Shown here one piece after another: positions 6,344 to 48,338 of a DNA stretch of 64,000 nt. This DNA is from Candidatus Nitrospinota bacterium M3_3B_026 (GTDB lineage Bacteria > Nitrospinota_A > UBA7883 > JBPRGF01): contig JBPRGF010000023.1 in the NCBI GenBank assembly GCA_051418015.1, positions 172,127 to 236,126 on the forward strand, in the 5' to 3' direction. Below the pieces are notes generated by a model, which made no database searches, was not told where the DNA came from, and was given only the letters and a program-made list of their open reading frames with translations. Both the position numbers and the translations under genes were made by a program. Position 1 is the stretch's first letter. Every line of letters starts with the position of its first letter.

Positions 6344-7882
6344 CTACCTCACCCCGGCGCCGAAATGGCGCTCGATGGCTCCCGCCAGTGCGGCCGTGGT
6401 GAAATCTTTCGGCTCGATCACGGGGTTCAATCCAAGCTTGCGGGCGGTCTCCGAGGTGATCGGCCCGATAGAGGCCACCGTCACGCCTTCCATCAGCCGC
6501 GCCGCCTCATCCTTGCCCCACATCTGGACGAAGTTCTGGACGGTGGAGGAGGAGGTGAACGTCACAACGTCTATCAGGCCCTCCTCGAACATTTTGCGGA
6601 CCTCTTCCTTGCGCTCTTCGGGTTTGATGGTGACGTAGGCCTCGGCGATGGTCACCTCCGCGCCAAGCTCGCCGAGTTTTTCCGGCAGGACCTCCCGGGC
6701 CACTTTCGCGCGGGGGATGAGTATCTTTTTACCCTTGAGGTCCTCGGCGCCCAGCCCTTCTATGATCGCCTCGGCGCGATATTCCGCCGGCAAAAGATCG
6801 ACCCGCACGCCGAGGCTCTCCACCGCCTCCGCGGTCTTCGGCCCGATGCCGCAGACTTTCAGTCCCTTAAGGTCTCGTATGTCCATGCCGCGCTCTTTCA
6901 GCCGCTCGACGAAGAACTTTACGCCGTTGACGGAGGTGAAGATTATCCAGTCATAATCCGCGAGTCTGTCAAGGGCGGCGTCGAGGCTGTCCCAGGACTC
7001 CGGCTTCACGGTCTCTATGGTGGGGAACTCTATGACGTCCGCGCCGCGCTCAGCCAGCATGGCGGCGAAATCCGAGGCCTGCTCGCGCGCCCTGGTCACC
7101 ACTATTTTCCTGCCGAACAATGGTTTTCGCTCGAACCAGTCGAGCTCCTCCTTGAGCTCCACCACGCCGCCGACGACGGTTATGGCGGGGGGTTTTATGT
7201 TCGCCTCCCTGACCTTGTCCACTATATCCGCCAGCGTCCCGGTGACGGTCTTCTGCTCCGGCGTCGTCCCCCAGCGGATGACCGCGGCGGGAGTCTCGGC
7301 CGGGCGGCCGTGTTTGATGAGGTTCTCCACGATGTTCGGCAGGTTCTTGATCCCCATGTAAAAGACGAGGGTGCCCATGCCCGTGGCGATCCTGTCCCAG
7401 TGTATGTTCGACTCTTTTTTCGTGGGGTCCTCGTGCCCTGTTACGAAGGCGACGGTGGCCGTGTGATCGCGATGCGTGAGGGGTATCCCCGCGTAGGCCG
7501 CGCCCGCCGCGCCCGCCGTGACGCCGGGGACGACCTCGTAGCGCAGCCCGGCCCTGACAAGCTCCTGGGCCTCCTCTCCGCCGCGTCCGAAGATGAAAGG
7601 ATCTCCCCCCTTGAGCCGGGCCACGACCTTGCCCGCCCCGCAGCGGTCCACTATGATCTGGTTTATCTCGTCCTGGGTCTTAGTGTGGCTGCCGCCCTGT
7701 TTGCCGACGTATAAAATCTCCGCGTCCGGCCGGGCGCTCTCCAGCAGCTTCGGGCTGGCCAGGTAGTCATACACGATGACATCGGCGCGCTCGATGATCT
7801 CTTTTCCCTTCACCGTTATGAGGCCCGGGTCCCCCGGCCCCGCTCCGATGAGATAGACGATTCCTTTGGACGTTTGGGGCAT
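6344..7882 (-). CDS. cobA-hemD: bifunctional uroporphyrinogen-III C-methyltransferase / uroporphyrinogen-III synthase
   Basis: 512 aa. N-terminal SUMT motifs are present (VYLIGAGPGDPGLITVKG, GGDPFIFGRGGEE). The C-terminal half is HemD-like. Confidence 0.9.
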   Translation of the reverse strand: MPQTSKGIVYLIGAGPGDPGLITVKGKEIIERADVIVYDYLASPKLLESARPDAEILYVGKQGGSHTKTQDEINQIIVDRCGAGKVVARLKGGDPFIFGRGGEEAQELVRAGLRYEVVPGVTAGAAGAAYAGIPLTHRDHTATVAFVTGHEDPTKKESNIHWDRIATGMGTLVFYMGIKNLPNIVENLIKHGRPAETPAAVIRWGTTPEQKTVTGTLADIVDKVREANIKPPAITVVGGVVELKEELDWFERKPLFGRKIVVTRAREQASDFAAMLAERGADVIEFPTIETVKPESWDSLDAALDRLADYDWIIFTSVNGVKFFVERLKERGMDIRDLKGLKVCGIGPKTAEAVESLGVRVDLLPAEYRAEAIIEGLGAEDLKGKKILIPRAKVAREVLPEKLGELGAEVTIAEAYVTIKPEERKEEVRKMFEEGLIDVVTFTSSSTVQNFVQMWGKDEAARLMEGVTVASIGPITSETARKLGLNPVIEPKDFTTAALAGAIERHFGAGVR

Positions 7883-32698: not shown

Positions 32699-33166
32699 AT
32701 GAGACCAAAATCCCTTGCGCCGGTACTGGAGGGGCACCCGTTCCTTGAGGGGATGGAGAAAAAGCACATCGACCTGATCGTGGGATGCGCCAAAAACGTC
32801 CGCTTCAACGCCGGGGACTACATCTTCCGCGAAGGCGAAGCGGCGAACGATTTCTACATCATCCGCCGGGGCCTCGTCTCGGTGGAGCTTTACAGCCCCC
32901 GGAAAGGCCCCATCTCCATCCAGACCCTTCGCGACGGCGACATACTCGGCTGGTCGTGGCTCATACCGCCACACCAGTGGCGGTTCGACGCGCGGGCGGT
33001 GGAGACAACGAGGGCCATAGCGCTGGACGGCGGATGCCTGCGCGGGAAGCTGGAGGACGACCACGGCCTCGGCTACCAGCTGCTGAAAAGATTCTCCCGG
33101 GTCATGGCAAAGACGCTCGAGGGCACGAGGCTCCAGCTGCTGGACCTTTACGGCGAAGGCGCATGA
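32699..33166 (+). CDS. stand-alone cyclic nucleotide-binding domain protein (no DNA-binding domain)
   Basis: 155 aa with a cNMP-binding fold (GDYIFREGEAANDFYIIRRGLVSVEL, GDILGWSWL). GGGGAG RBS. Its stop overlaps the ATG of the next gene (ATGA). Confidence 0.65.
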   Translation: MRPKSLAPVLEGHPFLEGMEKKHIDLIVGCAKNVRFNAGDYIFREGEAANDFYIIRRGLVSVELYSPRKGPISIQTLRDGDILGWSWLIPPHQWRFDARAVETTRAIALDGGCLRGKLEDDHGLGYQLLKRFSRVMAKTLEGTRLQLLDLYGEGA

Positions 33167-34017
33167 CGACGCCCGTTTCCATCAATCCCGGAGCGGACGC
33201 GGCGATCCCCGTTCCCTGGATGGTGACGGCCAGGAGGGAGCAGACGCGCGACGTCTTCACCCTCGAGCTTGCCCCGCCCGCCGGGATGGACGGTCTCCGG
33301 TTCGCGCCGGGCCAGTTCAACATGCTGTACCAGTTCGGCGCGGGCGAGGCGCCGATCTCCATCAGCGGCGACCCAGCGAGGACCGGCGCGCTGGAGCACA
33401 CGATCCGGGCCGTCGGCGGCGTGACAAGGCTTATGGCCAGCCTTAGGGAAGGAGACGCCATCGGCGTCCGGGGCCCATACGGGCGTGGATGGCCGATGCC
33501 TGAGGCGGAGGGGAAAGACGTCGTCATCGCCGCGGGCGGGATCGGGCTGGCCCCGCTGCGCCCGGCGGTTCTTGGCATACTGGCGGAGCGGGAAAAATTT
33601 GGAAGAGTCGTCCTGTTTTACGGCGCGCGATCCGACGAGGACATAGTCTTCGAAGACGACCTGCGGGAATGGCGGTCGAGGTTCGACATGGAGATCGAGG
33701 TGACCGTCGACCGGGGGTCCGGCGGATGGCGCGGACCCGTCGGCGTCGTCACACAGCTTATTCCGCGGGCCGCCTTTGATCCCGCGAAAACGCTGGCCAT
33801 GATATGCGGGCCGGAGGTGATGGCGAAGTTCACCGTGTCGGAGTTTTTAAGGCTCGGCGTTGAGCCGGGGAGGATATACGTCTCCATGGAACGGAGCATG
33901 AAATGCGGAGTCGGCCTTTGCGGGCATTGCCAGATGGGCCCGCTTTTCGTCTGCAAGGACGGGCCGGTTTTCACCTATGACAGCATCCGCCGCCTCATGG
34001 CTCTGCGGGAGATATAG
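33163..34017 (+). CDS. NiFe hydrogenase gamma subunit, AsrB-like FAD/NAD(P)-binding 2Fe-2S oxidoreductase
   Basis: 284 aa. FAD-binding barrel (RDVFTLEL...GQFNMLY), an NAD-binding region (VVIAAGGIGLAPL), and a C-terminal 2Fe-2S Cys cluster (CGVGLCGHCQMGPLFVCKDGPVF). The ORF call at 32785 is a spurious extension. Confidence 0.75.
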   Translation: MTTPVSINPGADAAIPVPWMVTARREQTRDVFTLELAPPAGMDGLRFAPGQFNMLYQFGAGEAPISISGDPARTGALEHTIRAVGGVTRLMASLREGDAIGVRGPYGRGWPMPEAEGKDVVIAAGGIGLAPLRPAVLGILAEREKFGRVVLFYGARSDEDIVFEDDLREWRSRFDMEIEVTVDRGSGGWRGPVGVVTQLIPRAAFDPAKTLAMICGPEVMAKFTVSEFLRLGVEPGRIYVSMERSMKCGVGLCGHCQMGPLFVCKDGPVFTYDSIRRLMALREI

Positions 34018-36070: not shown

Positions 36071-36536
36071 GGTCCTCATAGGCGTCGGGTCCGAGGATCG
36101 CGGCGACGACGCCGCAGGGCTCAGGATCGTCCGCGCCCTCAGGGACATGGTTCCCAGGAGCGTCGAGGTGGTGGAGGCGCCGGGCGAGGGAGCGCGTATA
36201 ATGGAGGCTTGGCAGGGTTTTCATTTCACGCGGGTGTTCGACGCCGTCTCCTCCGGCGCGCCGCCGGGGACGATCGTAAAGCTCGACCCGCGTAAGGACC
36301 CCTTTCCCGCGGCCTTTTTTCGCAGTTCCTCCCACACTTTCGGCCTGGCGGAGGCGGTGGAGCTTGCGCGGTCGCTCGGCGCTCTTCCGCCGTCTCTCAT
36401 GATCTACGGGGTGGAGGGGAAGGACTACGGGCTGGGGCGGGGGCTCTCGGCGGAGGTGTCCGCCGCCGTGGATGAGATCGTGGAGATGGTCAAAAAGGAG
36501 ATGCTCTCTTCGCCATCCATGGGAGATGATGGCTAG
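36060..36536 (+). CDS. hydrogenase maturation endopeptidase (HycI/HoxW family)
   Basis: 158 aa ([17 protein letters not shown]). Overlaps the large-subunit stop. Confidence 0.8.
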
Positions 36537-37054
36537 GACTTGGAGAACCGCTCCGACACGGAGTCGAAGCCTATGACCACCTTGTCGCGGCTTTCGAGGG
36601 TGACCGTCCCTTCGAAAGAGTGGCCGAACGTCTCGTCCCCGTCCCTGGTGTCCTTTATGGCCACTTTTATCGCATGCGAGCCGAGGGGCAGGATGAACTT
36701 CTCGTAGACATACGTGGCGCTGTCCTGCCTTATGCCCGATGGGACGATCTGCTTGTCCAGGGCGGTTTCGCCGTCGATCCACACCTTGAGCCGCAGGGGG
36801 ACGCGTTCCCGGCTGCCGCAAACCCTGTCCGCCCGCTGCATGTGCGGGCGTCTCAGCTTGGCCTCCTTTTTGAACTCTTCGAGCTCCTCCTCGTCGCACA
36901 GGCTCCTGCGCTCGGTCACTCTCTTGAACGATATGATGACCCCCCCCACGTCGTCGCTGTAATAGCTGTAGGACGGCGAGTCGGAAAGAAAATACACCAG
37001 CGGCGCGGGGGACAAAAGCAGGATCACGGCCCAGACCGTCAGTCTATCCTTCAT
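36533..37054 (-). CDS. hypothetical secreted protein
   Basis: 173 aa with an N-terminal signal-like helix. Last gene of the minus-strand oxidase operon. Its stop overlaps the protease stop (convergent). Confidence 0.4.
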   Translation of the reverse strand: MKDRLTVWAVILLLSPAPLVYFLSDSPSYSYYSDDVGGVIISFKRVTERRSLCDEEELEEFKKEAKLRRPHMQRADRVCGSRERVPLRLKVWIDGETALDKQIVPSGIRQDSATYVYEKFILPLGSHAIKVAIKDTRDGDETFGHSFEGTVTLESRDKVVIGFDSVSERFSKS

Positions 37055-38730
37055 TTCAGCGCGCCCTCCATGTCGTTGGCGGCGGTCTTTCCGCCGGATG
37101 GTTTTCTGACGATCTCCAGGAACTTCTTTATGTCCGCCACCACTTCCTCGTCCTCAAACCTCGACACCAGCATGACTTTTATCCGCTCCCCCGCGCTCTC
37201 GTCCACTCCGGTGATGTTCGCCGGGTCCGTCGCCTCCTCGATCCGCTCGTTGCCTTCCCTGTAATGGCAGTCCAGCGGCCTGCAGCCCACGACCACGACC
37301 CCCTTCGCGCCGTCCTTGAACGCCGCTCCCACAAGGTCCGGCTCCAGGACGCCGGCGCAGGGGATGACCATCACGGCCGCCGCGGGCTCGCCGGCAAGGC
37401 TTCTCTCGTCGTCCGACAGGACGTTCGAGAGGGTCATGCTCCGCTCGCACATGAAGCAGAGGATGACCGGCTTCTCCCCCTCCGCGGGCGCCATAAGGGA
37501 CTTTATGTCCTCCAGCATCGAATCCCGCGTCATCTCCCCCATGGATATCCCGGACGTGGGGCACGCCGTCACGCAGAACCCGCATCCCTCGCACCGCGCC
37601 GGGAATATTTCCACCTGTGTGTCGTATGGTCTTCCGTCCGTTCTGGGAGTTATGCTCACCGCCTCGAAAGGGCAGACCGGCTGGCAGAGGTTGCATCCTT
37701 TGCATTTTTCAAGGTCTACCAGCGCGAACTGTTTTCGGGCTTTTTTTTTTGCCGCCGCCTTTCGCTTCTCACGCTCCAGCGCCGGCGCGGGGATGAGCCA
37801 TGGCAGGGCCGTGAAAAGCGCGAGGGCCGCGGAGCCGGCGATCCACATCGCGCCGGGGGCGACCCTGAAGGCGTCCATGAAGGGGAACGGGATCAGGTAG
37901 AACCAGTCTATCTCCACTCTTCCTAAAAGCTTCGAAAGGTCCGCGGGTCCCATACTGACGGCCGGTTTCACGAGGGAGAGGCCCAGCAGGCCCGCCAGTA
38001 TGACCAACGCCACCGGCCGCGGCGGGGAGATCAGGGGCCTGGAAAGGCGCATGTAGTGGATCCAGGCCATTATCAACAGGAAACAGGGGATCATGAGATG
38101 CAGGTAGTTGGTCACGAAAAAGAGCACGCTCGTGACCGTCTCGTTGGTCAGGAACGTCCTGGAGACGGGCTCCACGGTGATGGGGAGGGCGTCCAGCAGG
38201 CGGGCGAACTCCACGGCCACCATCTTCCCCTTCTCGTCCCACACCAGCACGTAGCCGGATATCCCCTCGAACCAGACCCAGAACAGGATCACCGAGCCGG
38301 AGACCCACGCCACCCATCTAGCGCGCCTGAACCGGTCGGAGAAAAAGACCTGGGCCACGTGCAGAAGGATGGATATGGCCAGCCCGTCGGCGGCGTAGCG
38401 GTGCATGGAGCGCATTATGCCGCCGTAATATTTCTGCTCCTTGGTGATGTATTGTACGGACTCGTAGGCCCCTTCCACGCTCATATCGTAAAAGAGGAAC
38501 AGGTATGACCCGGTGATGATGAGGATCCAGAACAGGAACAGGGATATGGCCCCGAGGAAGTACATGGGGTTCAGCCTCGGCGGGAAGATCTTGTTCAGCT
38601 GCTCCTGGATGAAGACCAGCGTCGTGTTGCCGGGCCGCAATATCCAGGGGATAAGCTCATTCTGGTACGTCTTGGAGGCCCTTTTCAGGGACCTTTCGAG
38701 TTCTCTCTCCTTGTCCGTGTCTTGTCTCAT
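37051..38730 (-). CDS. fusion protein: di-haem cytochrome b6-like membrane domain + 2x[4Fe-4S] ferredoxin + MvhD-like (FlpD) domain
   Basis: Cytochrome b His pairs 14 residues apart (MHRYAADGLAISILLH and YLHLMIPCFLLIMAWIH) and a b6-like GYVLVWD motif. Two CxxCxxCxxxCP motifs (CKGCNLCQPVCP, CEGCGFCVTACP). MvhD signature GCRPLDCHYREGN. Confidence 0.7.
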   Translation of the reverse strand: MRQDTDKERELERSLKRASKTYQNELIPWILRPGNTTLVFIQEQLNKIFPPRLNPMYFLGAISLFLFWILIITGSYLFLFYDMSVEGAYESVQYITKEQKYYGGIMRSMHRYAADGLAISILLHVAQVFFSDRFRRARWVAWVSGSVILFWVWFEGISGYVLVWDEKGKMVAVEFARLLDALPITVEPVSRTFLTNETVTSVLFFVTNYLHLMIPCFLLIMAWIHYMRLSRPLISPPRPVALVILAGLLGLSLVKPAVSMGPADLSKLLGRVEIDWFYLIPFPFMDAFRVAPGAMWIAGSAALALFTALPWLIPAPALEREKRKAAAKKKARKQFALVDLEKCKGCNLCQPVCPFEAVSITPRTDGRPYDTQVEIFPARCEGCGFCVTACPTSGISMGEMTRDSMLEDIKSLMAPAEGEKPVILCFMCERSMTLSNVLSDDERSLAGEPAAAVMVIPCAGVLEPDLVGAAFKDGAKGVVVVGCRPLDCHYREGNERIEEATDPANITGVDESAGERIKVMLVSRFEDEEVVADIKKFLEIVRKPSGGKTAANDMEGALK

Positions 38731-38779: not shown

Positions 38780-39595
38780 TTAGGAGGCTTGCGCGCCCCT
38801 CGCGCGGCCTGAGTGGCGGGAGAAAAGATGGGCTATCCTGCCCCGCAACAGGTAAACGACAGTGGCCACTATCAGGATGTACTGCAAAATGACTGCGAAG
38901 ACAAACGTGTAATCGACCTTGTAGGTCTTGGTGACGGGATCGTAGTTCGAGCAGTAGATCAACAGCTTTGACAGGGCGCTGGTCATCCTCCCCTGCGCCG
39001 TGCGGCCGGCGAGGACATCCCGGACGGCGTTCTCCACTTCCGCGGGATCGTAGTCCACTCCGTAGAAATGCCTGGCGACGGAGCCGTCGGGCGCGACGAG
39101 GGTGAGGCGGTTCAGGTGATCGAGGCTGTCCGCCTTCTTCTCGTAGGAAAAGCCGAGGTCCGACACCATCATCCCCAGCGTCTCGTCGTCGGTGGTCGTG
39201 AATATCCATCTTTCGAAATTGTCCGCGAAAGCCGCGCCGTACTCCCTGAGCCTGGCGGGGTTGTCGTTATGGTTGTCGATGCTTATCGACAGCGTCATCA
39301 GCTTCCCGGCGACGGCCGGGTCGATGGCCGCCAACATGTTTTTAAGGCTCTCGTTTATGAGCCAGCAAGGGCCGTGGCAGTCCACGTACATGAAGCTTAC
39401 GAGGACGGGCCTGCCTTTCAGGCTGTGGAACGGGAGGTAGTCCCCGTCCTGCGTAATAAGCCTGTAGTTTCGCACCTTCCGCCCCACCGCCAGCTCCGAG
39501 CGCTCCAGGACCGAAGCCCCAGGCGCGGCCGGCGCCGTGGCGGAAAGCGGCGAAACGATCAGAACAACCGCTAATACCAGCGCACGTTTCAGCAT
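38780..39595 (-). CDS. SCO1/SenC family copper chaperone (thioredoxin-like)
   Basis: 271 aa. Signal peptide, CHGPC (CxxxC) motif, and a C-terminal TM segment. Confidence 0.7.
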   Translation of the reverse strand: MLKRALVLAVVLIVSPLSATAPAAPGASVLERSELAVGRKVRNYRLITQDGDYLPFHSLKGRPVLVSFMYVDCHGPCWLINESLKNMLAAIDPAVAGKLMTLSISIDNHNDNPARLREYGAAFADNFERWIFTTTDDETLGMMVSDLGFSYEKKADSLDHLNRLTLVAPDGSVARHFYGVDYDPAEVENAVRDVLAGRTAQGRMTSALSKLLIYCSNYDPVTKTYKVDYTFVFAVILQYILIVATVVYLLRGRIAHLFSRHSGRARGAQAS

Positions 39596-39685: not shown

Positions 39686-39814
39686 TCAACCCACCTTCCA
39701 TACTCCTACAAGATACTTCCAGTTGAGGAAGTAGAAGGCCACGAACGTAATGAAAAATATGATGATGATGGCGAACGAGCCTTTCGGCCTGTGTTCGTCT
39801 CTCTCTTCAACCAT
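39686..39814 (-). CDS. small single-TM membrane peptide (42 aa), candidate oxidase accessory subunit
   Basis: Not in the ORF track. ATG is preceded by AGGAGG at -5. MVEERDEHRPKGSFAIIIIFFITFVAFYFLNWKYLVGVWKVG. Lies between SCO1 and subunit I. Confidence 0.45.
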   Translation of the reverse strand: MVEERDEHRPKGSFAIIIIFFITFVAFYFLNWKYLVGVWKVG

Positions 39815-39844: not shown

Positions 39845-41365
39845 TCAAGCCTCGATCTTTTTGCCGACTAGCAGCGTCCCGACGGCCACCAACACATACA
39901 TGGCGCCGCCCAGCACCGCTATGACGCCGCCGATGCCCACGATCGCCATCGAAAGGTCCACGATGGGCCCGAAGTTGACGGCGAAGGGCGAATCCGCCCC
40001 GGTCATGTCCCAGCTTCTCCTGGGCACGCCGAACACCCCGGCGAACATCATGAAGATGCACAGCAGGTACATCCCTATGCCATAGACGTAGGGCTGGGCC
40101 TTGGCTATGCCCTTGAAGGCCACCTCGCGCCTGAATATGAGAGGCAGCACGTAGTAGGTCACGCCCATGAAGGCCATCGTCGTGCCCGCCACCACTGTGG
40201 CGTGGAAATGGCCGGGGACGCGGATGGTGTTGTGGACGACTATGTTCAGCTGCTCCGTGCCGTATATGACGCCGGAGATGCCTCCCAGGAAGCCGAAGCC
40301 CACCATCGAGAACCACAGCGAGGACCATCCCGGATCGCCCCACGGGGCCTTCTTGAGCCACTCGAAAAGACCGGCGGTGTAGCCCTTCTTCCTGAGCGCC
40401 ACCTCCGTCGCCGCCGGCACGGAGAAGGCGTGGATCATCGAGGCCAGCACAGCAAGGTGCATGAAGTACCCCGTGTTCCACGACTTGTGCGCCGCCGAGA
40501 GGCCCGGGTCGACCAGCAGGTGGTGCTCCGAGGCTATCAGGATGAACAAGATGTAAAGGCCGAAAGCGATGCGGCTGACCTTCTCGTTGATCGGCGTGGA
40601 GCCGACCGTCAATGTCCCCAGAAGGTACCAGACAGCCACCATGGCGCAGACGTTTATCTGCTGCGACGAGTGGCCGAAGCCCCAGAACAGCAGCCTGTAG
40701 ACCTCCGCGTCCATCATGGGGATGAGCCCCAGGGCCCACAGCCACGTGGGGATAAAAGTGGCCGCTCCATGCGCCAGGGTCAGTATGGCGATGATCGCCG
40801 CCGCCATGGCCCCGAAGGTCACAAGCGGGACGGAGCCTTCGTAGGTCTTGTCCCTCTTGGCCACCGCCAGCGTGGCGAAAAAGACCACGCAACCCACGAT
40901 GGCGCCCACGGCGAAGAGTATCACGCCGAGGTAGTACCAATGGTCGGCCTTCAAGGGGATGTACGAGGTGAACATCACGTCCGCCTTGCCGAGCAGTATC
41001 TCCACCGCCGCTATTGCGGCTCCGCCCAGCATCAGCAGATACGCCAGCCACCCGGCCCATGGCGCGGCCAGCCTGGTGTTCAGCAACACCGCGGACGCGA
41101 AGTAGAGCACAGCTATCTCGAAGAAGATGATCCACGCCACCAGCATGGCGATCCCGTGCAGGGTCAGCAGCCGGTAGAACCACTCGTCATTGAGTATGTG
41201 CACGGCCTGCCACCTGGTGAGGACCATGAACAGCCCGATTATCCCCCCCACGAGGAGGAACACGATCGAAGTCACCGCGTTGACCTGTATCAGGGTCTGC
41301 GCGGGAAGGTGTATCTTGAAACCGGTTGTCGGACAGGTTCTGAACCGTCCTTCTTGCTCCGCCAT
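39845..41365 (-). CDS. heme-copper oxidoreductase superfamily subunit I (12+ TM), possibly a nitric oxide reductase
   Basis: All six canonical His are present: helix II (LTLHGIAM), helix VI (GFGHSSQQ), helix VII (SEHH) and helix X (GHFHATV). There is no Tyr at H+4 in helix VI. Confidence 0.85.
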   Translation of the reverse strand: MAEQEGRFRTCPTTGFKIHLPAQTLIQVNAVTSIVFLLVGGIIGLFMVLTRWQAVHILNDEWFYRLLTLHGIAMLVAWIIFFEIAVLYFASAVLLNTRLAAPWAGWLAYLLMLGGAAIAAVEILLGKADVMFTSYIPLKADHWYYLGVILFAVGAIVGCVVFFATLAVAKRDKTYEGSVPLVTFGAMAAAIIAILTLAHGAATFIPTWLWALGLIPMMDAEVYRLLFWGFGHSSQQINVCAMVAVWYLLGTLTVGSTPINEKVSRIAFGLYILFILIASEHHLLVDPGLSAAHKSWNTGYFMHLAVLASMIHAFSVPAATEVALRKKGYTAGLFEWLKKAPWGDPGWSSLWFSMVGFGFLGGISGVIYGTEQLNIVVHNTIRVPGHFHATVVAGTTMAFMGVTYYVLPLIFRREVAFKGIAKAQPYVYGIGMYLLCIFMMFAGVFGVPRRSWDMTGADSPFAVNFGPIVDLSMAIVGIGGVIAVLGGAMYVLVAVGTLLVGKKIEA

Positions 41366-41378
41366 AAGCCCCCCCTAC

Positions 41379-41906
41379 CTATTCAACGTATATCTTGCCG
41401 AACATCAGGTGATGCCCGATGCCGCAGAACTCGTTGCAGATTATGGTGTACTCCCCGGCTTTCGTCGGCGTGATGGTCAGCACCGAGTCCCACCCGGGGA
41501 CGGCCTGGAAGTTCATGTTCAAAGGATAGATCGAAAAACCGTGGTTCACGTCCACGGAGGACAGATGCAGCCTGTAGGTCTGGCCCGCCTTGAGCTTCAG
41601 GATGGGGTCCCACGACCACTGGGCGGCTCTCATGAAGGCGTCGCTGTTGGGAGGAGGCTCCACGACCGGGATTCCTTCCTCCTCGCCCACCTTGTACTTC
41701 TCTATGAACTTATCGGTCAGGTTGTAGAAATCGTCGGTGGTGAGCTTGTAGTACTCCTGCGGCGGGTTCTGCTCCCCGATTATATGCCAGGCCGGCATAA
41801 TAAGTGTTATCAATATGCACCATATCAGCGCGATGGTGATCCATATCTTCTCCTCCGCATGGAGAGGACTGCGCCACCAGTGCCGCGCGGGCGAATGAAT
41901 GCTCAT
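41379..41906 (-). CDS. heme-copper oxidase subunit II with CuA site (cupredoxin), no cytochrome c domain
   Basis: N-terminal TM helices. CuA motif VNHGF...ICNEFCGIGHHLM (H-x35-CxExCGxxHxxM). Confidence 0.8.
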   Translation of the reverse strand: MSIHSPARHWWRSPLHAEEKIWITIALIWCILITLIMPAWHIIGEQNPPQEYYKLTTDDFYNLTDKFIEKYKVGEEEGIPVVEPPPNSDAFMRAAQWSWDPILKLKAGQTYRLHLSSVDVNHGFSIYPLNMNFQAVPGWDSVLTITPTKAGEYTIICNEFCGIGHHLMFGKIYVE

Positions 41907-41928: not shown

Positions 41929-42132
41929 TCACCCTTTGACCAAAGGAGACGTGGCGACGCTGCCCAACTCCACAAGTCCCCAGACGGTGTACAACAGCAG
42001 GAAAATCGCCGCCCCGAGGAAAAACAGCAGATACACGTCATCGAAAAACACCTGCCAGAAAGATACCGGCTCCTCTTCCCGCGCCTCTTCTTGTTCCATA
42101 TGACTTCCCCCCTTTAATCTAAGGTTCGCCAA
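41929..42132 (-). CDS. small membrane protein (first gene of oxidase operon)
   Basis: 67 aa with one TM helix. Possibly starts at the internal MEQEE. Confidence 0.35.
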   Translation of the reverse strand: MANLRLKGGSHMEQEEAREEEPVSFWQVFFDDVYLLFFLGAAIFLLLYTVWGLVELGSVATSPLVKG

Positions 42133-42613: not shown

Positions 42614-44218
42614 ATGAAAAGATATTTCTTTCTGTTCGCGCTGAGTCTTGCGTTAATCACCACGTTTTACACGCCACAAGCCCTGGCGGAGCCCGAAGCG
42701 CCACCGTTGAACCAGGATGAATGGCACATCGCCAAGAGCATCTACTTCAACAGGTGCGCCGGCTGCCACGGCACCCTGAGGAAAGGCGCCACGGGGCCCA
42801 ACCTCCTTCCGGAGAAGACCCTCGAATTCGGCACGGAGACCATCAGGAGCTTCATTATGGAGGGGACCGAGGGGGGCATGCCGGCCTTCGGCAGGGGCGG
42901 AATCCTGACGCCGGAGGAGGTCGACATCATGGCCAGGTTCGTCCAGCATGACCCCGTGGCCCCGCCGGAGATGTCGCTGGCGGACATGATGGAAAGCTGG
43001 AACCTTGTCGTGCCGCCGAACAAGAGGCCGAAAAAGCCGGCCCACAACAGGAACTGGCAGAACTTCTTCGGCGTGGTCCTGCGCGACGCTGGCCAGGTGG
43101 CCATCATCGACGGCGACACCAAGGAGAAGGTATCCACCGTCAACACAGGCTTCGCGGTGCACATCCTGCGCGCCTCGGCGTCGGGCCGGTATATCTTCTC
43201 AATCGGCCGCGACGGCAAGGCGACCATGATCGACACCTGGATGAAAAAGCCGTCCATCGTGGCCGAGGTCAAGACCTGCTCCGAGGCCCGCTCCATCGAC
43301 ACCAGCAAATACGAAGGCTACGAGGACAAGTACGCCGTGGTGGGCTGCTACTGGCCGCCGCACTTCGTCGTCCTGAACGGCGCCACGCTGGAGCCGATGA
43401 AAATCGTCAGCACCAGAAGCTACACCTACGACTCGTATGAGTACCATCCCGAGCCCCGCGTGGCGGCGATCGTCTCCTCGCACTACAGCCCGGAGTGGGT
43501 CCTGAACGTCAAGGAGACGGGCTACGTCTGGCTGGTCGATTACTCCGATATCGAGAACATGAAGATCACCCAGATCGAGTCTGAGCGCTTCCTTCACGAC
43601 GGGGGCTGGGACGCCAAGCACCGCTACTTCATGGCGGCGGCGAACATGCGCGACACCATGGTTGTCATAGACACCAAGACCAGGAAGAAGGTGGCGCAGT
43701 TCAAGGTCGGCACCAAGCCGCACCCGGGCCGCGGCGGAAACTGGGTCGACCCGAAATACGGCCCCGTCTCGGGCACGGTGCACCTCGGCGAGGGACTGCT
43801 CTCGGTGTGGGGGTCCGACCCTGAGGGTCACCCGGAACACGCCTGGAAGGTCGTGAGAAGCATCGAGCTTCCCGGCGGCGCCGGCAGCCTGTTCATGAAG
43901 ACCCACCCCAAGAGCAAACACATGTGGATGGACTTCACCCTGAACCCGGACCCGAAGAACCATCGCAGCGTATGCGTGATGGACATCAACAAGCCTAACA
44001 CCAAGGACCTGAACTGTTTCCAGGTGACCGACCACGGACGCGTCGTGCACATGGAGTACAACAAGAAAGGGGACGAGGTGTGGCTGAGCGTCTGGGACAA
44101 GGAGGGCGAGCTGGTCATCTACGACGACAGGACCCTGAAGGTCAAGAAGAGGATCAAGGGTCTTCGCACTCCCACGGGCAAGTTCAACGTGTACAACACG
44201 CAGCACGACATCTACTGA
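42614..44218 (+). CDS. nirS: cytochrome cd1 nitrite reductase
   Basis: 534 aa. Signal peptide, haem c site IYFNRCAGCHGTLRKGATG, a d1 beta-propeller, and a C-terminus FNVYNTQHDIY near-identical to Pseudomonas NirS. Confidence 0.92.
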   Translation: MKRYFFLFALSLALITTFYTPQALAEPEAPPLNQDEWHIAKSIYFNRCAGCHGTLRKGATGPNLLPEKTLEFGTETIRSFIMEGTEGGMPAFGRGGILTPEEVDIMARFVQHDPVAPPEMSLADMMESWNLVVPPNKRPKKPAHNRNWQNFFGVVLRDAGQVAIIDGDTKEKVSTVNTGFAVHILRASASGRYIFSIGRDGKATMIDTWMKKPSIVAEVKTCSEARSIDTSKYEGYEDKYAVVGCYWPPHFVVLNGATLEPMKIVSTRSYTYDSYEYHPEPRVAAIVSSHYSPEWVLNVKETGYVWLVDYSDIENMKITQIESERFLHDGGWDAKHRYFMAAANMRDTMVVIDTKTRKKVAQFKVGTKPHPGRGGNWVDPKYGPVSGTVHLGEGLLSVWGSDPEGHPEHAWKVVRSIELPGGAGSLFMKTHPKSKHMWMDFTLNPDPKNHRSVCVMDINKPNTKDLNCFQVTDHGRVVHMEYNKKGDEVWLSVWDKEGELVIYDDRTLKVKKRIKGLRTPTGKFNVYNTQHDIY

Positions 44219-44301
44219 TGGCAAGCGCGCGGTAACACCGTTGAGGGCGCCCCGGCGCGGCGGCAAGCCCCCGGGGCGCCCCGAATTAAAAGAGGCGCAT
44301 T

Positions 44302-46017
44302 ATGACCTCGCCATCCATGACGCGGATCGCGGCTCTCATCCTTGCGCCGGTGTTTATCTCCGGCCCCGGATCGGCCTTCGCCGAAACTTCCGCGAAGAAC
44401 CTCTATGGGGAGCATTGCGCGAGCTGCCATCACCCGAAAAGGCTGGGGCTCACGGCCCCTCCCTTGATACCGGGTCTTTTTTCAAGAAGCGCCAAGGGCC
44501 GCCTGCCCCAAATAATCCGCGACGGGCTTCCGGCCACGCGGATGCCGGCTTTCGGCGGCGAGCTTTCTGATGAACAGATAAAACTTCTGGCGGAACTCAT
44601 ACAAGAACCGGCGAAGGAGTTGGACTGGACTTTTGAGGACATACGGTCTAGCAAGATTGACATTGACGAGCCTGGAAAAGTTTTAAGAGCCGACATCGAG
44701 AATATAACGCTGGTCATGGAGCGCGGGACGCAGAGCCTCGTCGTTCTGGACGGCGCGGATTTCAGCGAGCTCGGCAGGTTCCACGTGGGCGCCGTCCACG
44801 GCGGGCCGAAGTTTTCGTATTCCCTGGATCGTGTGTACGCCCTTGCCAGGGACGGGATACTGACAAGCTATAATCTGAGAGCCCTTTCCGCCGAGACCAG
44901 GCTCAAGGCGGGGATAAACTCCCGCTCCGTCGCCGTATCAAGCGGCGACAAAACGGTGGCCGTGGCCAATTACCTTCCGTCCAACGTCGTCCTTTTCGAC
45001 AAAGACCTGGAGCCCGTCGGCGAGATACCACTGCCCGGAAAGGCGGGGGGGTTCTACTCGCTGCCGTCCCTGAAAAGCTTCGCCCTGTCGTTCAGGGAGA
45101 TTCCGGAACTCTGGATAATCGGCGAGAGCCCGCCTTTCGAGATCGAAAAACGAAAGCTGCCCGAGGCTTTCCAGGATTTTTCGGTCAGTCCCGTCAAGCC
45201 TTACATAATCGGGACGAAACGGGGCGGCGATCATATGTACATCTACGACTACATGGAGGACAGGATACTCAAAAAGATCCCCACCAGCGGCCTGCCGCAC
45301 CTGGCCTCGGCCGCGTTCTACATACACAAGGGCGAGCTTTTCGCCGGGGTCAACCACATAAAAAAGCCAGCGGCCACGATCATATCCCTCGACCGGCTCG
45401 ACAAGGTGGCCGAGATACCCCTTCCCGGCGCGGGCTTTTTCGTCCGGACGCATCATGCCACGCCGTACCTGTGGATAGATACCGAGACGGAGCGGATCGC
45501 CCTCGTGAACAAGGACGACTTCTCCGATATCCGCTACCTGACGCCCCACGAGGGGCGCAAGGCGATGCACGTGGAATTCACCAAGGAGGGCGCCCGCGCC
45601 CTGGTCACCATCCCGGGCAGGGGCGGCGAGGTGGTCATATACGACGCGAAGACCCTGGAAAAGATCAACGCCATCCCCTTCGAACGGCCCGTCGGCAAGT
45701 ACAACGCCACGAACAAGACGTACCCGGGCAGATCGCTCGCGGCGCGGAAGGCGGATGGGGCCAGCGCGGGCAAACAGGTCTTCGACAAATACTGCATGGG
45801 GTGCCACCACCAGGTCTACGAGGCGTTCGGGCCATCCTTCACCCGGATAGCCAGGGAGAGGGGCGCGGCAAGGATAAAGTTTCACATCCTGTCGCCCGAG
45901 GCCAGCGCAAAGACCCTGGGGTACAAGAGAAACTCCATGCCCAGGATAAAACTTTCGCCGGAGCAGCTGGAGGCGATAGTCAGATACATAAAAAGCTTCG
46001 GCCAGACGGGGGGATAA
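44302..46017 (+). CDS. nirN: cd1-family beta-propeller protein with N- and C-terminal c-type cytochrome domains (NirN-like fused to a NirC-like cytochrome c)
   Basis: 571 aa. Signal peptide. CASCHH at the N-terminus, a d1-type propeller, and a second CMGCHH motif in a C-terminal domain of about 90 aa. Confidence 0.65.
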   Translation: MTSPSMTRIAALILAPVFISGPGSAFAETSAKNLYGEHCASCHHPKRLGLTAPPLIPGLFSRSAKGRLPQIIRDGLPATRMPAFGGELSDEQIKLLAELIQEPAKELDWTFEDIRSSKIDIDEPGKVLRADIENITLVMERGTQSLVVLDGADFSELGRFHVGAVHGGPKFSYSLDRVYALARDGILTSYNLRALSAETRLKAGINSRSVAVSSGDKTVAVANYLPSNVVLFDKDLEPVGEIPLPGKAGGFYSLPSLKSFALSFREIPELWIIGESPPFEIEKRKLPEAFQDFSVSPVKPYIIGTKRGGDHMYIYDYMEDRILKKIPTSGLPHLASAAFYIHKGELFAGVNHIKKPAATIISLDRLDKVAEIPLPGAGFFVRTHHATPYLWIDTETERIALVNKDDFSDIRYLTPHEGRKAMHVEFTKEGARALVTIPGRGGEVVIYDAKTLEKINAIPFERPVGKYNATNKTYPGRSLAARKADGASAGKQVFDKYCMGCHHQVYEAFGPSFTRIARERGAARIKFHILSPEASAKTLGYKRNSMPRIKLSPEQLEAIVRYIKSFGQTGG

Positions 46018-46018
46018 G

Positions 46019-47188
46019 ATGTTCAGACTAAGCCATTATTACAACATAGCTGAAGGGCGCGCGGGCCGCGGCGGAAAGTCCCATGGCGCCAGATGCGGCG
46101 GGAAGCCGATCGTGATATGGAACCTCACGAGGACATGCAACCTCTCGTGCGTCCATTGCTACGCCTCGTCGAAGGCGCGCGGCTACAGCAGGGAGCTTTC
46201 CACGGAGCAGGCCGTCTCGGTCATGGACGGCCTTTACGCCGCCGGGGTGAGAACGGTCATCCTCTCCGGCGGCGAGCCGATGATCCGCGGGGATATCCTT
46301 AACCTTGCCGCAAGCGCTAAAGAAAAAGGCTTCATGACCTCCATCTCCACCAACGGCACACTTATAGGAGAGAAGGAGGCGGACAGGATAGCCGCCGCGG
46401 GGCTGGACTACGTCGGCGTGAGCCTGGACGGCATCGGCGAGACCCACGACCGCGTCCGGGGCGTCGAAGGCTCTTTCGAGCAGGCCGTGGCGGGGCTTTT
46501 CAGGCTGGCGGAGCGGGGGGTAAAATGCGGCGTGCGTTTCACGCTGACGAGGATGAACATGAACGACCTGCCGGCGATCTTCGAGTTCGCCGAGAAGAAC
46601 GGGATAGGGAAAATATATTTATCACACCTCGTCTACTCCGGCAGGGGTGGCGTCAATCGGGGGGAGGACGTCACCCCGGCTGAGACGAGGGAAGCGATGG
46701 ATTACGTTTTCAGCAAGGCGCGGGAGTACACGCGGCGCGGGCGCGGGCCGCAGATCGTCACCGGGAACAACGACGCCGACGCCGCGTACCTGCTCCTGCG
46801 TCTCATGGAGGGGAGCCCGGAGGGGGCCGAGCGGCTCCTGCCGGTGATGGAGAGGTTCGGCGGGGCCAACGCCGGGGTGGGGGTCGCGAACATAGACCCC
46901 ACCGGTGAGGTCCACCCCGATCCTCTCATGTCCTCCGTGAACCTGGGGAACGTCACCGAAAAATCTTTCGGTGAGATATGGCATGACTCCGAAAACCCCG
47001 TCCTGAAAAGGCTCCGGGCGAGGCCCCGCGTCTTCAACGGCCGGTGCGGACGGTGCGCCTGGCTGAAGGTGTGCGGCGGCTCCTGCCGCGTCCGGGCTCT
47101 GCGGATGACGGGGGACATGTGGGGTCACGACCCCGCCTGCTACCTTACCGACGAGGAAACCCAGGTTGAGCTTGCGCAGGCTGTATAG
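46019..47188 (+). CDS. nirJ: haem d1 biosynthesis radical SAM protein
   Basis: 389 aa. CNLSCVHCY radical SAM cluster plus a C-terminal SPASM-like Cys cluster (CGRCAWLKVCGGSC). Lies in the nir context. Confidence 0.8.
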   Translation: MFRLSHYYNIAEGRAGRGGKSHGARCGGKPIVIWNLTRTCNLSCVHCYASSKARGYSRELSTEQAVSVMDGLYAAGVRTVILSGGEPMIRGDILNLAASAKEKGFMTSISTNGTLIGEKEADRIAAAGLDYVGVSLDGIGETHDRVRGVEGSFEQAVAGLFRLAERGVKCGVRFTLTRMNMNDLPAIFEFAEKNGIGKIYLSHLVYSGRGGVNRGEDVTPAETREAMDYVFSKAREYTRRGRGPQIVTGNNDADAAYLLLRLMEGSPEGAERLLPVMERFGGANAGVGVANIDPTGEVHPDPLMSSVNLGNVTEKSFGEIWHDSENPVLKRLRARPRVFNGRCGRCAWLKVCGGSCRVRALRMTGDMWGHDPACYLTDEETQVELAQAV

Positions 47189-48338
47189 CGCTGTTATCCC
47201 GGCCGTTCTCGCGCTCGCGGCAGCAGCGGCGACAGCGGGCGAGTGGGGCACGGGGGCGCTCATGGTGGTCATCGAGCGCGAAAGCGGCTCCGTCCTGGTC
47301 ATAGACTCCGCCCAGGACCACAAAGTCCTGGGCAGGATAGAGGGTCTCGGCGTACTGCATCACGCATCGGTCTCCTTCTCCCGCGGCGGGCGCTACGGCT
47401 ACGTCGTCAGCCGCGACGGCTTTTTGAGCAAGATCGACCTTCTGAGGCTCGAAGTCACCGCCAGGGTGAAGGTGGGAGAGAGCGCCATCGGGCTGGCTGT
47501 CACGCAGGACGGGAAACATATCGCCATCAGCAATTACAAGCCGGGGAACATCGTCATCGTCTCCGATGAGACTTTTGAGATCGTAAAGACCATAGACGCC
47601 GACGAGTCGAAGACCGTCGGCCTCGTGGACGCCCCGGAGAACAGGCTGGTGGTCTCTTTAATGGACGCGAACGAGATATGGGTAATAGACGCGAACGATC
47701 CGGATTTCCCCGTCATCAAAAAGTTCAAGGACGTCGGCGAGAAGCCATACGACGGCCTGCTGACTCCCGACGGGCGGTATTACATCGCCGGGCTTTTCCA
47801 TTCCCCGTGGGCGGCGATGGTGGACCTCTGGAGCATGGACGGGGTTGAAAAAATCCCGCTGCCCGTCCCGCCCGAAAAAAAGGACAAACCGCCGGTCCTG
47901 AAGATCCCCCACCTGGAGGGGTGGATCATGGCCGGGCAGGGCCTTTTCGCGCCGGTGATAGGCGGCTCCGGGCTGGCGCTGATCGACATGGAGACATGGA
48001 AGGTAAAGAAGGTGATAGACCTGCTGGCATACCCCGTCTTCGCCATGGCCCAGCCGGACATGAGGAGGATATGGACCAACTACGTCCTGGGCGAACACCA
48101 CGACACCGTGCAGGTCGTGGACGTGAAAACCCTCGAGGTGGTCAAAACCCTCAAACCCGGCGACAAAATTTTCCACATGCAGTTCACGCCCAAGGGCGGC
48201 GCCGTCTACCTCTCCTCCAACGGCGACGACAAGGTCCTGATCTACGACACGAAGACTTTTGGGCTTGTCAGGGAGATATCAGCCAGAAAACCATCCGGGA
48301 TATTCTCAAGCGCCCGCTCCGCCACCTTCGGGCTGTGA
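47166..48338 (+). CDS. nirF: haem d1 biosynthesis protein NirF (d1-type propeller without haem c)
   Basis: 390 aa. Signal peptide. cd1-propeller-like repeats. No CxxCH. Confidence 0.7.
   Translation: MSLRRLYSAVIPAVLALAAAAATAGEWGTGALMVVIERESGSVLVIDSAQDHKVLGRIEGLGVLHHASVSFSRGGRYGYVVSRDGFLSKIDLLRLEVTARVKVGESAIGLAVTQDGKHIAISNYKPGNIVIVSDETFEIVKTIDADESKTVGLVDAPENRLVVSLMDANEIWVIDANDPDFPVIKKFKDVGEKPYDGLLTPDGRYYIAGLFHSPWAAMVDLWSMDGVEKIPLPVPPEKKDKPPVLKIPHLEGWIMAGQGLFAPVIGGSGLALIDMETWKVKKVIDLLAYPVFAMAQPDMRRIWTNYVLGEHHDTVQVVDVKTLEVVKTLKPGDKIFHMQFTPKGGAVYLSSNGDDKVLIYDTKTFGLVREISARKPSGIFSSARSATFGL

Follow-up and report, generated by a model that had tools for sequence, protein, structure and literature searches.

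A membrane cytochrome b fused to ferredoxin and MvhD domains is a widely conserved companion of eNOR-type nitric oxide reductase genes

The DNA analyzed here is a stretch of 64,000 nucleotides (the window) from Candidatus Nitrospinota bacterium M3_3B_026, taken from contig JBPRGF010000023.1, positions 172,127 to 236,126. Its minus strand carries an operon of seven genes that encode, in order, a 56-amino-acid (aa) transmembrane (TM) peptide, subunits II and I of an enzyme of the haem-copper superfamily, a 42-aa TM peptide, the copper chaperone SCO1, a fusion of a membrane cytochrome b with iron-sulfur domains, and a protein of 173 aa that we call ORF173. The sixth gene, the fusion, is the subject of this report. 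An earlier reading made without database searches (the sequence-only reading) had described its product as tripartite, a di-haem cytochrome b joined to two [4Fe-4S] ferredoxin motifs and an MvhD/FlpD-like domain. Pfam and NCBIfam profile searches back all three domains, and the limits given for the open reading frame (ORF) were exact. We conclude that the fusion is a cytochrome-b-anchored Fe-S electron module and a widely conserved companion of the nitric oxide (NO) reductase eNOR, which it probably wires, together with the quinone pool, to the cell interior. The fusion gene, its domains and the partner gene behind it are as follows.

37051..38730, minus strand: the cytochrome b–2x[4Fe-4S]–MvhD/FlpD fusion, an ORF of 559 aa (Pfam, NCBIfam, homologues, AlphaFold2, alignments)
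37786..38592, minus strand: membrane domain of the fusion, aa 47-315, cytochrome b helices A-F (Pfam, six TM helices, invariant residues, Foldseek)
37531..37734, minus strand: 2x[4Fe-4S] ferredoxin domain of the fusion, aa 333-400, predicted to be cytoplasmic (Fer4 matches, match to the HdrA2 C-terminus, conserved cysteines)
37102..37464, minus strand: MvhD/FlpD domain of the fusion, aa 423-543, predicted to be cytoplasmic (PF02662; alignment to solved MvhD/VhuD chains)
36533..37054, minus strand: ORF173, the 173-aa partner protein, with an N-in TM anchor and a periplasmic beta-sandwich

All three Pfam matches of the fusion exceed their gathering cut-offs: Cytochrome_B (PF00033) on aa 47-229 with E 2.8e-24, two Fer4 motifs at aa 338-392 with E 2.5e-12, and FlpD (PF02662) on aa 423-542 with E 2.4e-16, a score of 60.3 bits against a cut-off of 22.3, and 120 of 123 profile positions covered. 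Among the NCBIfam models, aa 56-231 resemble ExtP and cytochrome b6, while aa 333-543 match the C-terminal ferredoxin and MvhD part of HdrA2 as a single block (E 5e-32); VhuD (NF045873) is matched with E 1e-10, which does not reach the cut-off of that model. The cofactor motifs named in the sequence-only reading are all found in the translated ORF, namely the bis-His haem motifs H110-x13-H124 and H211-x13-H225, the b6 motif G159-YVLVWD165, the ferredoxin motifs C343xxC346xxC349xxxC353P and C380xxC383xxC386xxxC390P, and the MvhD-domain motif GCRPLDCHYREGN at aa 482-494. In an alignment of 95 homologues with a mean identity of 28%, the four haem histidines H110, H124, H211 and H225 are invariant. 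The eight Fer4 cysteines are invariant or at least 90% conserved, as are C428, C458, C483 and C488 of the MvhD domain, with the fourth MvhD cysteine lost in some Gemmatimonadota relatives. These four residues align with cysteines of the solved MvhD/VhuD chains 9sw2_D, 5odc_D and 9sfi_K and are candidate ligands of a [2Fe-2S] cluster. AlphaFold2 models the fusion as a single compact protein (predicted local distance difference test, pLDDT, 91.3; predicted template-modelling score, pTM, 0.89), and neither sequence nor Foldseek structure comparisons returned a solved structure that spans all of its domains.

Hydropathy and the positive-inside rule give the membrane domain six TM helices, with the N-terminus, the B-C loop, the D-E loop and a Lys/Arg-rich linker behind TM6 predicted to be cytoplasmic. 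Because the linker is placed in the cytoplasm, the Fer4 and FlpD domains that follow it, and thus the whole Fe-S/MvhD chain, are predicted to lie inside the cell. Haem ligands H110 and H211 fall on the membrane's positive (p) side and H124 and H225 on the negative (n) side. In this arrangement the two b haems with bis-His ligation span the membrane. Cytochrome b6 carries YCLGG at the site of haem cn; at this position the fusion reads N54-P-M-Y-F-L-G60-A and has no cysteine. The membrane domain had been described as linked to the ferredoxin module through two extra TM helices. These two helices exist, but they are helices E and F of cytochrome b itself, since the Foldseek match of the model to cytochrome b of bc1/bcc complexes (about 285-340 aligned columns) covers helices A-F. 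In b6f complexes helices E and F are supplied by subunit IV, and they form the quinol-oxidising pocket (PMC5600118). The ef loop of the fusion reads IDWFY, a PEWY-like or PDWY-like variant without the proline, and contains D275, which is invariant. Among the 95 homologues, W164-D165, P183 and P188 of the cd loop as well as P256 and D275 show little or no variation. With this cd loop, both helices E and F, and an ef loop that has the invariant Asp, the fusion retains a Qo-like pocket architecture on the periplasmic side. The sequence-only reading had called the cytochrome b genuinely quinol-reactive; what the sequences show is the conserved Qo-like pocket. No Rieske partner had been seen nearby, and Pfam scans agree with this: neither the operon nor the larger ORFs of the 64-kb window that were scanned gave a Rieske match. 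Rieske proteins are likewise absent from the operon in the Pfam-annotated related loci L081-L089; L083 and L088 have unrelated Rieske genes several kb off.

The fusion gene is preceded in its operon by the genes for the haem-copper enzyme and SCO1, and a nir cluster lies on the opposite strand.

41929..42099, minus strand: single-TM peptide of 56 aa, first gene of the operon (translation; tblastn homologues)
41379..41906, minus strand: subunit II of the predicted eNOR, one TM helix and a periplasmic CuA cupredoxin domain (COX2 PF00116, CoxB TIGR02866)
39845..41365, minus strand: subunit I of the predicted eNOR, haem-copper superfamily, B-family-related (COX1 PF00115, E 5e-63)
39686..39814, minus strand: single-TM peptide of 42 aa between subunit I and SCO1 (ORF list; conserved position)
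38780..39595, minus strand: SCO1/SenC copper chaperone, anchored at the N-terminus, TM helix at the C-terminus (PF02630, E 7e-13)
42614..48338, plus strand: divergent nir cluster with nirS, nirN-like, nirJ-like and nirF-like genes (Pfam)

The best solved relatives of subunit I are the B-family ba3 oxidases (E ~1e-39). The ligand histidines H232, H281 and H282 are kept, and the cross-linked tyrosine of ba3 (Y237) aligns to Q236. Among 63 loci, H232 and Q235 are invariant, Q236 is present in 61, and H281/H282 are present in 61. A Gln at the Tyr site is diagnostic of eNOR, whereas sNOR and CuANOR have Asn, gNOR has Asp, and cNOR and qNOR have Glu (PMC8756737, Table A4). A CuA-containing subunit II is required in eNOR (PMC11214002), and the CuA ligands H122, C157, C161, H165 and M168 of subunit II are invariant in 59 loci. 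The haem-copper proteins of the window also share 51-52% identity and the operon with proteins of Gallionellaceae, whose counterparts in Ferrigenium have been classified as eNOR (PMC11214002; bioRxiv 10.64898/2026.01.22.701106). Because Gln replaces the cross-linked Tyr, we assign the neighbouring enzyme, on its sequence, to the eNOR-type NO reductases; the earlier description had allowed for an oxidase or a NO reductase, and the residue at the Tyr site points to the latter. The eNOR of Rhodothermus marinus has been shown experimentally to reduce NO and to be unable to reduce O2 (PMC11214002). An sNOR (norSY-senC-orf1, as in ammonia oxidisers) was considered and rejected, since Asn at the Tyr site and a small 'orf1' with 6 TM helices go with sNOR and CuANOR, and the enzyme here has Gln.

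The divergent nir cluster gives three Cytochrom_D1 matches (E 7e-131 for nirS, 2e-53 and 4e-80) and a Radical_SAM match for the nirJ-like gene (E 6e-30), and the nirN-like cd1 protein of the cluster contains two additional cytochrome c domains. About 21 of 80 related loci have nirS no more than 10 kb away, and NosR-like, ApbE, Crp/Dnr, NirE and CtaA genes are other neighbours in the related loci. The genomic setting is that of denitrification and agrees with a role of the neighbouring enzyme in NO reduction. Elsewhere in the window, a CobA/HemD fusion at 6344-7882 (minus strand) could supply precorrin-2 for haem d1. A scan of the operon region for sigma-70-like promoter sites found none and was uninformative.

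The placement of the fusion gene inside the haem-copper operon is conserved. We compared 80 loci related to that of the fusion by tblastn with the proteins of the window; an all-vs-all clustering of neighbouring ORFs was noisy, owing to shadow ORFs in GC-rich DNA, and served only to choose Pfam representatives. The conserved order is subunit II, subunit I, often a UbiA haem O synthase, SCO1, fusion, ORF173. Subunit I of eNOR lies upstream in 57 of the 59 loci with at least 4.5 kb of upstream flank and is colinear in 53, and SCO1 stands between subunit I and the fusion in 53 loci. In the reverse test, five of six loci picked by subunit I alone (61-64% identity) contained the fusion and an ORF of ~180 aa; the subunit I matches listed were all at least 61% identical, which places distant eNORs such as that of Rhodothermus marinus outside this sample. 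In these five loci the fusion and the ~180-aa ORF are divergent from the eNOR genes, with an Rrf2 (NsrR-like) regulator between them, which suggests NO-responsive control. A regulator of this kind is found at around 6800-7250 in the Gemmatimonadota-type loci L081, L082, L083, L085 and L086. Across phyla, eNOR loci regularly contain the fusion, periplasmic ORF173 and both small peptides. The sequence-only reading had passed over ORF173, the two peptides and the divergent nir cluster. The earlier proposal of a dedicated redox partner for the haem-copper enzyme fits the very strong synteny found in this survey of co-occurrence.

The fusion itself is widespread. A homologue search yielded 109 clusters, nearly all with the three-part architecture, from Nitrospinota, Deltaproteobacteria, Nitrospirae, Gemmatimonadota and Acidobacteria. 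When one genome per species was scanned, at least 548 genomes proved to have a relative, and an exhaustive profile-free search of 1.84 billion representatives gave 372 clusters at 50% identity (E <= 1e-30). A minority of relatives are split, with P0031, P0037 and P0038 consisting of cytochrome b only and P0048 of Fer4 and FlpD only. In the distant relative L087:880-5843, a 385-aa cytochrome b plus Fer4 protein, with DUF4405, is encoded apart from an FlpD gene, and both lie in a bc-type operon that also encodes a dihaem cytochrome c and another cytochrome b, of full length, but no haem-copper enzyme. Relatives of the fusion are named 'hydrogenase iron-sulfur subunit' or 'cytochrome b N-terminal domain-containing protein' at NCBI.

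The architecture had been thought not to be described. It is common in databases, was listed without comment in a table of 2022 (PMC8756737), and was mentioned in 2026; that it is functionally uncharacterised still stands. The main text of the eNOR papers does not mention the fusion gene, and the only source that discusses such genes is the 2026 preprint on Ferrigenium straubiae (bioRxiv 10.64898/2026.01.22.701106), which concerns one genus. There, the eNOR-operon genes 2878407319 and 2878407323 were called 'rather unusual' and Ferrigenium markers, one described as 'cytochrome b and [Fe-S]' and the other as cytochrome b/[Fe-S]/FAD/NADH. Both gene products turned up in the proteome under autotrophic denitrifying Fe(II) oxidation, and the authors speculated about a supercomplex that couples NO reduction to NAD+ reduction; the MvhD domain and the wide distribution of the fusion were not noted. 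The Ferrigenium genes belong to the same family and operon as those of the Gallionella loci L057, L066 and L074, whereas the window has the MvhD form only and no FNR form.

These Gallionella loci (e.g. L066:5701-9579) also bear on the cytoplasmic module. In the usual slot of the fusion they encode a 646-aa protein composed of cytochrome b, Fer2, FAD_binding_6 and NAD_binding_1 domains. Behind this FNR-type protein are an ORF173 homologue and a divergent 470-aa COX1-like protein (PF00115 with E 1e-6, below the cut-off), and the MvhD-type fusion occurs further downstream in the same loci. Since the Fer2/FAD/NAD variant occupies the same slot, the cytoplasmic module is interchangeable and can be of the pyridine-nucleotide type. 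On the other side of the membrane, rare relatives of the fusion, among them P0104 and RME88945.1 (PMC8756737, Table A3), end in a c-type cytochrome domain (CRVCH) behind the ORF173-like domain. The 2022 paper puts this domain in the 'C1' cytochrome family, of which a member in Chloroflexi is fused to NirS. The variants with a C-terminal cytochrome c thus have a one-electron carrier on the periplasmic face. In ~40 proteobacterial loci a bacteriohemerythrin (PF01814, ~130 aa) is encoded directly downstream of the ORF173 homologue (e.g. L022:12029-12430); it is not found in the window and could be an O2/NO-binding or Fe-S-protecting accessory. L085 has ScdA_N/DUF2249 and FeS_assembly_P neighbours.

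ORF173 belongs to the same unit as the fusion. Its start overlaps the fusion stop by 4 nt, and 72 of the 75 loci whose sequence reaches far enough downstream contain a homologue. Many relatives have it as a C-terminal extension of the cytochrome: longer fusion homologues (~640-720 aa) carry, behind the MvhD domain, a single TM helix and an ORF173-like domain of ~110 aa, and many of the 50%-identity representatives measure ~690-720 aa, the length of the ORF173-fused form. A word-indexed search with ORF173 gave three matches only, and its relatives came from the C-terminal extensions of fused homologues and from tblastn. ORF173 has no Pfam or NCBIfam match. It is predicted to be N-in/C-out, and structure prediction gives a TM helix and a beta-sandwich (pLDDT 84.5). 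Within a lower-confidence helical insert of the beta-sandwich, aa 53-79 carry a C...P-x-H-M-(R/Q)...C motif that may be a Cu or thiol site and is missing in 3 of 13 aligned homologues (P0056, P0060 and P0082). In L083 a CopD gene adjoins the ORF173 homologue.

The two small peptides are similarly conserved. The ORF of the 56-aa peptide is preceded by a strong Shine-Dalgarno sequence, and in 61 related loci tblastn located a homologue directly upstream of subunit II, with P.MQ..LDNPFLLLFLGV..P.V.Y..WG as the common motif. By analogy with subunit IIa of ba3 oxidases, it may be a small subunit of eNOR. The 42-aa peptide is conserved in 77 loci directly behind subunit I, with the motif GTFVLA..F..FVLYYFVNWKYLS.VW, and in many relatives it forms the C-terminal extension of a longer subunit I (565-585 aa).

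Several known systems resemble the fusion in part. Its best solved sequence matches are cytochrome b6 chains (E 1e-23), and it shares with b6f/bc1 cytochrome b the RSxHRY...H and H-x13-H motifs, the cd loop and a PEWY-like ef loop. However, it has no Rieske, no cytochrome c1/f partner and no haem cn cysteine (YFLG), and it lacks helices G and H of bc1. Its Fe-S/MvhD chain is fused to the n-side face, where a Qi site or haem cn would be, and its gene belongs to the operon of a NO reductase. In QmoABC, HdrDE and DsrMK of sulfate reducers and methanogens, too, a di-haem membrane cytochrome b is connected to cytoplasmic [4Fe-4S] clusters of the HdrC/ferredoxin-like kind. QmoB ends in an MvhD-like domain, and Qmo/Hdr-type complexes are thought to pass electrons between menaquinol and cytoplasmic reactions. 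However, their cytochrome b is of the NarI/HdrE family, not PF00033, and has no Qo-type pocket, and their partners are APS reductase, DsrC or heterodisulfide rather than a haem-copper NO reductase. No CCG/HdrB-D domains were detected by Pfam in the fusion locus proteins scanned. We therefore regard the resemblance as one of functional analogy and not of membership.

The cytoplasmic part of the fusion resembles HdrA2 of Methanosarcina, where the HdrA2 match noted above spans positions 569-770 of 777. Unlike HdrA2 and the Mvh-Hdr system, the fusion has no HdrA flavoprotein core, HdrBC or conserved hydrogenase, and the module sits on a membrane cytochrome. Among NCBIfam models the best cytochrome b match is ExtP of the Geobacter Cbc/ExtP type (E 3e-30), which is similarly b6-like and Rieske-less, although the fusion scores 105 bits against an equivalog cut-off of 290. 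The partners of Geobacter Cbc/ExtP are periplasmic multihaem cytochromes. Finally, some Rieske/cytochrome b complexes, of anammox bacteria and others, have a large cytoplasmic NAD(P)-binding Fe-S subunit and have been proposed to bifurcate quinol electrons with the formation of NAD(P)H (Kartal et al.; Dibrova et al. 2017, subfamily G). They share with the fusion a bc-type cytochrome b and a cytoplasmic oxidoreductase module, but they keep Rieske and c-type subunits and a separate oxidoreductase, whereas the window has no Rieske and a fused ferredoxin and MvhD module.

We consider it very likely that the fusion and ORF173 are the redox partner of eNOR and wire the membrane's p-side to cytoplasmic Fe-S clusters. 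As the full CuA site is kept, eNOR must receive single electrons from a donor in the periplasm. We propose that the fusion and ORF173 make up a dedicated electron-transfer module for it, of the cytochrome b type and without a Rieske protein, in which quinol would be oxidised at the Qo-like pocket. The first electron would go to the high-potential side, reaching the CuA site of eNOR directly or via a c-type cytochrome, and would serve NO reduction. The second, low-potential electron would cross the membrane from haem bL to haem bH and on to the Fe-S/MvhD chain, which would pass it to a soluble cytoplasmic carrier, either ferredoxin-like or, in the Gallionellaceae 2Fe-2S/FAD/NAD variant, NAD(P)+. 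The strongly oxidising NO/N2O couple would pay for this uphill delivery of electrons to the cytoplasm. Judged from the sequences, this full directional mechanism of quinol bifurcation is a tentative proposal that we would put below an even chance, though ahead of the other models considered.

Several observations favor the proposal. Bifurcation is the one model among those considered that makes use of all three conserved nodes: the Qo pocket, the haems that cross the membrane and the Fe-S chain in the cytoplasm. The exchange of the cytoplasmic module in the Gallionella loci also counts in its favor. The cytochrome c-fused variants and the Magnetococcus gene pair beside nirS argue for a periplasmic one-electron carrier near the module. 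The expression of the Ferrigenium proteins also fits, as an Fe(II)-oxidising autotroph has plentiful periplasmic electrons and scarce cytoplasmic ones, and the similar roles proposed for the anammox Rieske/cytochrome b complexes may serve as a precedent by analogy.

A number of points weigh against it. The locus encodes no Rieske-equivalent high-potential acceptor, ORF173 has no universally conserved cofactor ligands among the 13 aligned homologues, and we know of no precedent for direct transfer from quinol to CuA. The operon has no conserved gene for a cytoplasmic acceptor. Uphill electron flow would meet no obvious need in the many carriers that are heterotrophic Alpha- and Gammaproteobacteria, and the fusion gene sits among maturation genes (SCO1, haem O synthase). 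The association with eNOR also has exceptions: the eNOR locus L084 has no fusion within 8 kb, and two loci carry the fusion with no eNOR nearby. The Magnetococcus locus reads fusion-ORF173-nirS with neither a haem-copper enzyme nor SCO1, and L006 reads TetR-SCO1-fusion-ORF173 with no haem-copper gene nearby. That Rieske-less Qo-type bifurcation, with one branch to NO and the other through b haems and the Fe-S/MvhD chain to ferredoxin or NAD(P)+, is a new and widespread energy-coupling device is a possibility that we view with more doubt than confidence.

Electrons might instead flow in the opposite direction. The fusion would then be a conduit like NOX or ferric reductases, carrying electrons from a cytoplasmic reductant through the Fe-S clusters and b haems to the CuA of periplasmic eNOR or to c-type cytochromes. 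Electrons would enter from ferredoxin or a different carrier that docks at the MvhD cluster, with NAD(P)H taking this part in the Fer2/FAD/NAD variant, and the outcome would be NO removal independent of the bc1/cytochrome c chain, an energy-neutral detoxification that follows the logic of Hmp or NorVW. NOX, FRE and cytochrome b561 offer a parallel in that they combine a di-haem membrane domain with a cytoplasmic reductase, and the FNR-type variant occupies the very slot of the fusion in the operon. A role in detoxification would also suit the Rrf2/NsrR-like regulators between the divergent operons of Gemmatimonadota-type loci, the hemerythrin genes downstream in ~40 loci and the ScdA/RIC-like neighbours in one, the variants fused to periplasmic cytochrome c, and the slow turnover of isolated R. 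marinus eNOR with artificial donors. However, reverse flow gives no reason for the Qo pocket to have kept helices E and F, its ef loop and the invariant Asp, and respiration would be short-circuited by it. It fits poorly with the expression of the proteins in autotrophs that oxidise Fe(II), whose scarce resource is reductant in the cytoplasm, and the distance from haem bL to CuA is probably too great without an intermediate. We think this explanation rather unlikely.

The position of the fusion among maturation genes raises another alternative, in which the fusion and ORF173, together with SCO1, would send reducing equivalents to the periplasm for the assembly of eNOR. Their task could be the reduction of Cu(II) to Cu(I) or of Fe(III) to Fe(II) for insertion of CuA or FeB, or the maintenance of SCO1 and CuA thiols in the reduced state, and ORF173 would be a periplasmic domain for handling metals or thiols. 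Eukaryotic cupric and ferric reductases are likewise built from b haems and an FNR module. The operon order groups the fusion with the UbiA haem O synthase and SCO1, and SCO1, fusion and ORF173 stay together in L006, where no haem-copper genes are nearby. Most ORF173 homologues have the C...P-x-H-M...C motif, with its Cu-type ligands, and the CopD gene of L083 lies beside one of them. The maturation of eNOR under anoxia has, moreover, been flagged as an open problem (bioRxiv 10.64898/2026.01.22.701106). Against such a role, the Cys/His/Met motif is missing in P0056, P0060 and P0082, and SCO1 is not beside the fusion in Gemmatimonadota-type loci and is absent from the Magnetococcus locus. Other CuA enzymes manage with SCO1/PCuAC alone, and a Qo-like pocket with a chain of three clusters would be elaborate for a low-flux task. 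A maturation factor therefore appears unlikely. As for haem supply, the idea that the fusion is an alternative haem A synthase was rejected, as COX15/CtaA co-occurs in 10 loci.

Cross-talk with the hydrogenase operon convergent to the fusion operon had been thought conceivable. The [NiFe] hydrogenase genes of the window have a set of NAD-binding and Fe-S subunits by Pfam, and this domain composition is consistent with the group 3b assignment. The NAD-binding subunit (32785-34017, plus strand, 410 aa) matches NAD_binding_1 and a DHODB Fe-S domain with its C-terminal 160 aa, and its first ~240 aa have no Pfam match at E <= 1e-4. On this view the fusion would work independently as a quinone-linked oxidoreductase, its MvhD domain serving to connect the group 3b hydrogenase or some other enzyme of the cytoplasm with the quinone pool, and the link to the oxidase would be incidental. 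MvhD normally joins [NiFe] hydrogenase to HdrA, solved complexes of this kind are among the structures matched, and hyp genes adjoin the operon in one related locus, the acidobacterial-type L088. However, tblastn with the hydrogenase subunits of the window found none in 89 related loci, even at E < 0.01, and the near-universal synteny of the fusion is with eNOR instead. The closest long-contig Nitrospinota relative (L089, on a contig of 810 kb) has nirS and no hydrogenase beside the operon, and Pfam scans of the larger ORFs of the window gave no HdrA-like gene. The adjacency is not conserved; we regard it as coincidental, and a hydrogenase-coupled function as very improbable. An assembly or frameshift artefact that joined a cytochrome b gene to a ferredoxin/MvhD gene is hardly credible, for although split relatives exist (P0031, P0037, P0038, P0048, and L087 with its separate FlpD gene), the same fused architecture recurs in more than 100 clusters that are independent and come from many phyla and sources, which excludes it, the architecture is also seen in 80 species genomes and in 372 clusters at 50% identity, and AlphaFold2 yields one compact protein.

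What is new here is the assignment of the haem-copper enzyme of this operon to eNOR on its sequence, together with three findings on the fusion: it is a general companion of eNOR in many phyla, ORF173 is part of the same unit, and its cytoplasmic module is interchangeable. The database name 'hydrogenase iron-sulfur subunit' is corrected thereby. eNOR has been reported to be among the commonest NO reductases, with a distribution comparable to that of cNOR and qNOR, and hence a source of N2O (PMC11214002). Most of the eNOR operons examined carry the fusion, its periplasmic partner and the two small TM peptides, and the functional eNOR unit is probably larger than the purified two-subunit enzyme. 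Should the fusion be a maturation device, it would bear on how haem-copper NO reductases are assembled under anoxia. If quinol bifurcation is true, the bioenergetic accounting of denitrification would change, and denitrifiers and lithoautotrophs (Nitrospinota, Gallionellaceae, Rokubacteria and others) would gain low-potential reductant from NO reduction without reverse flow through complex I.

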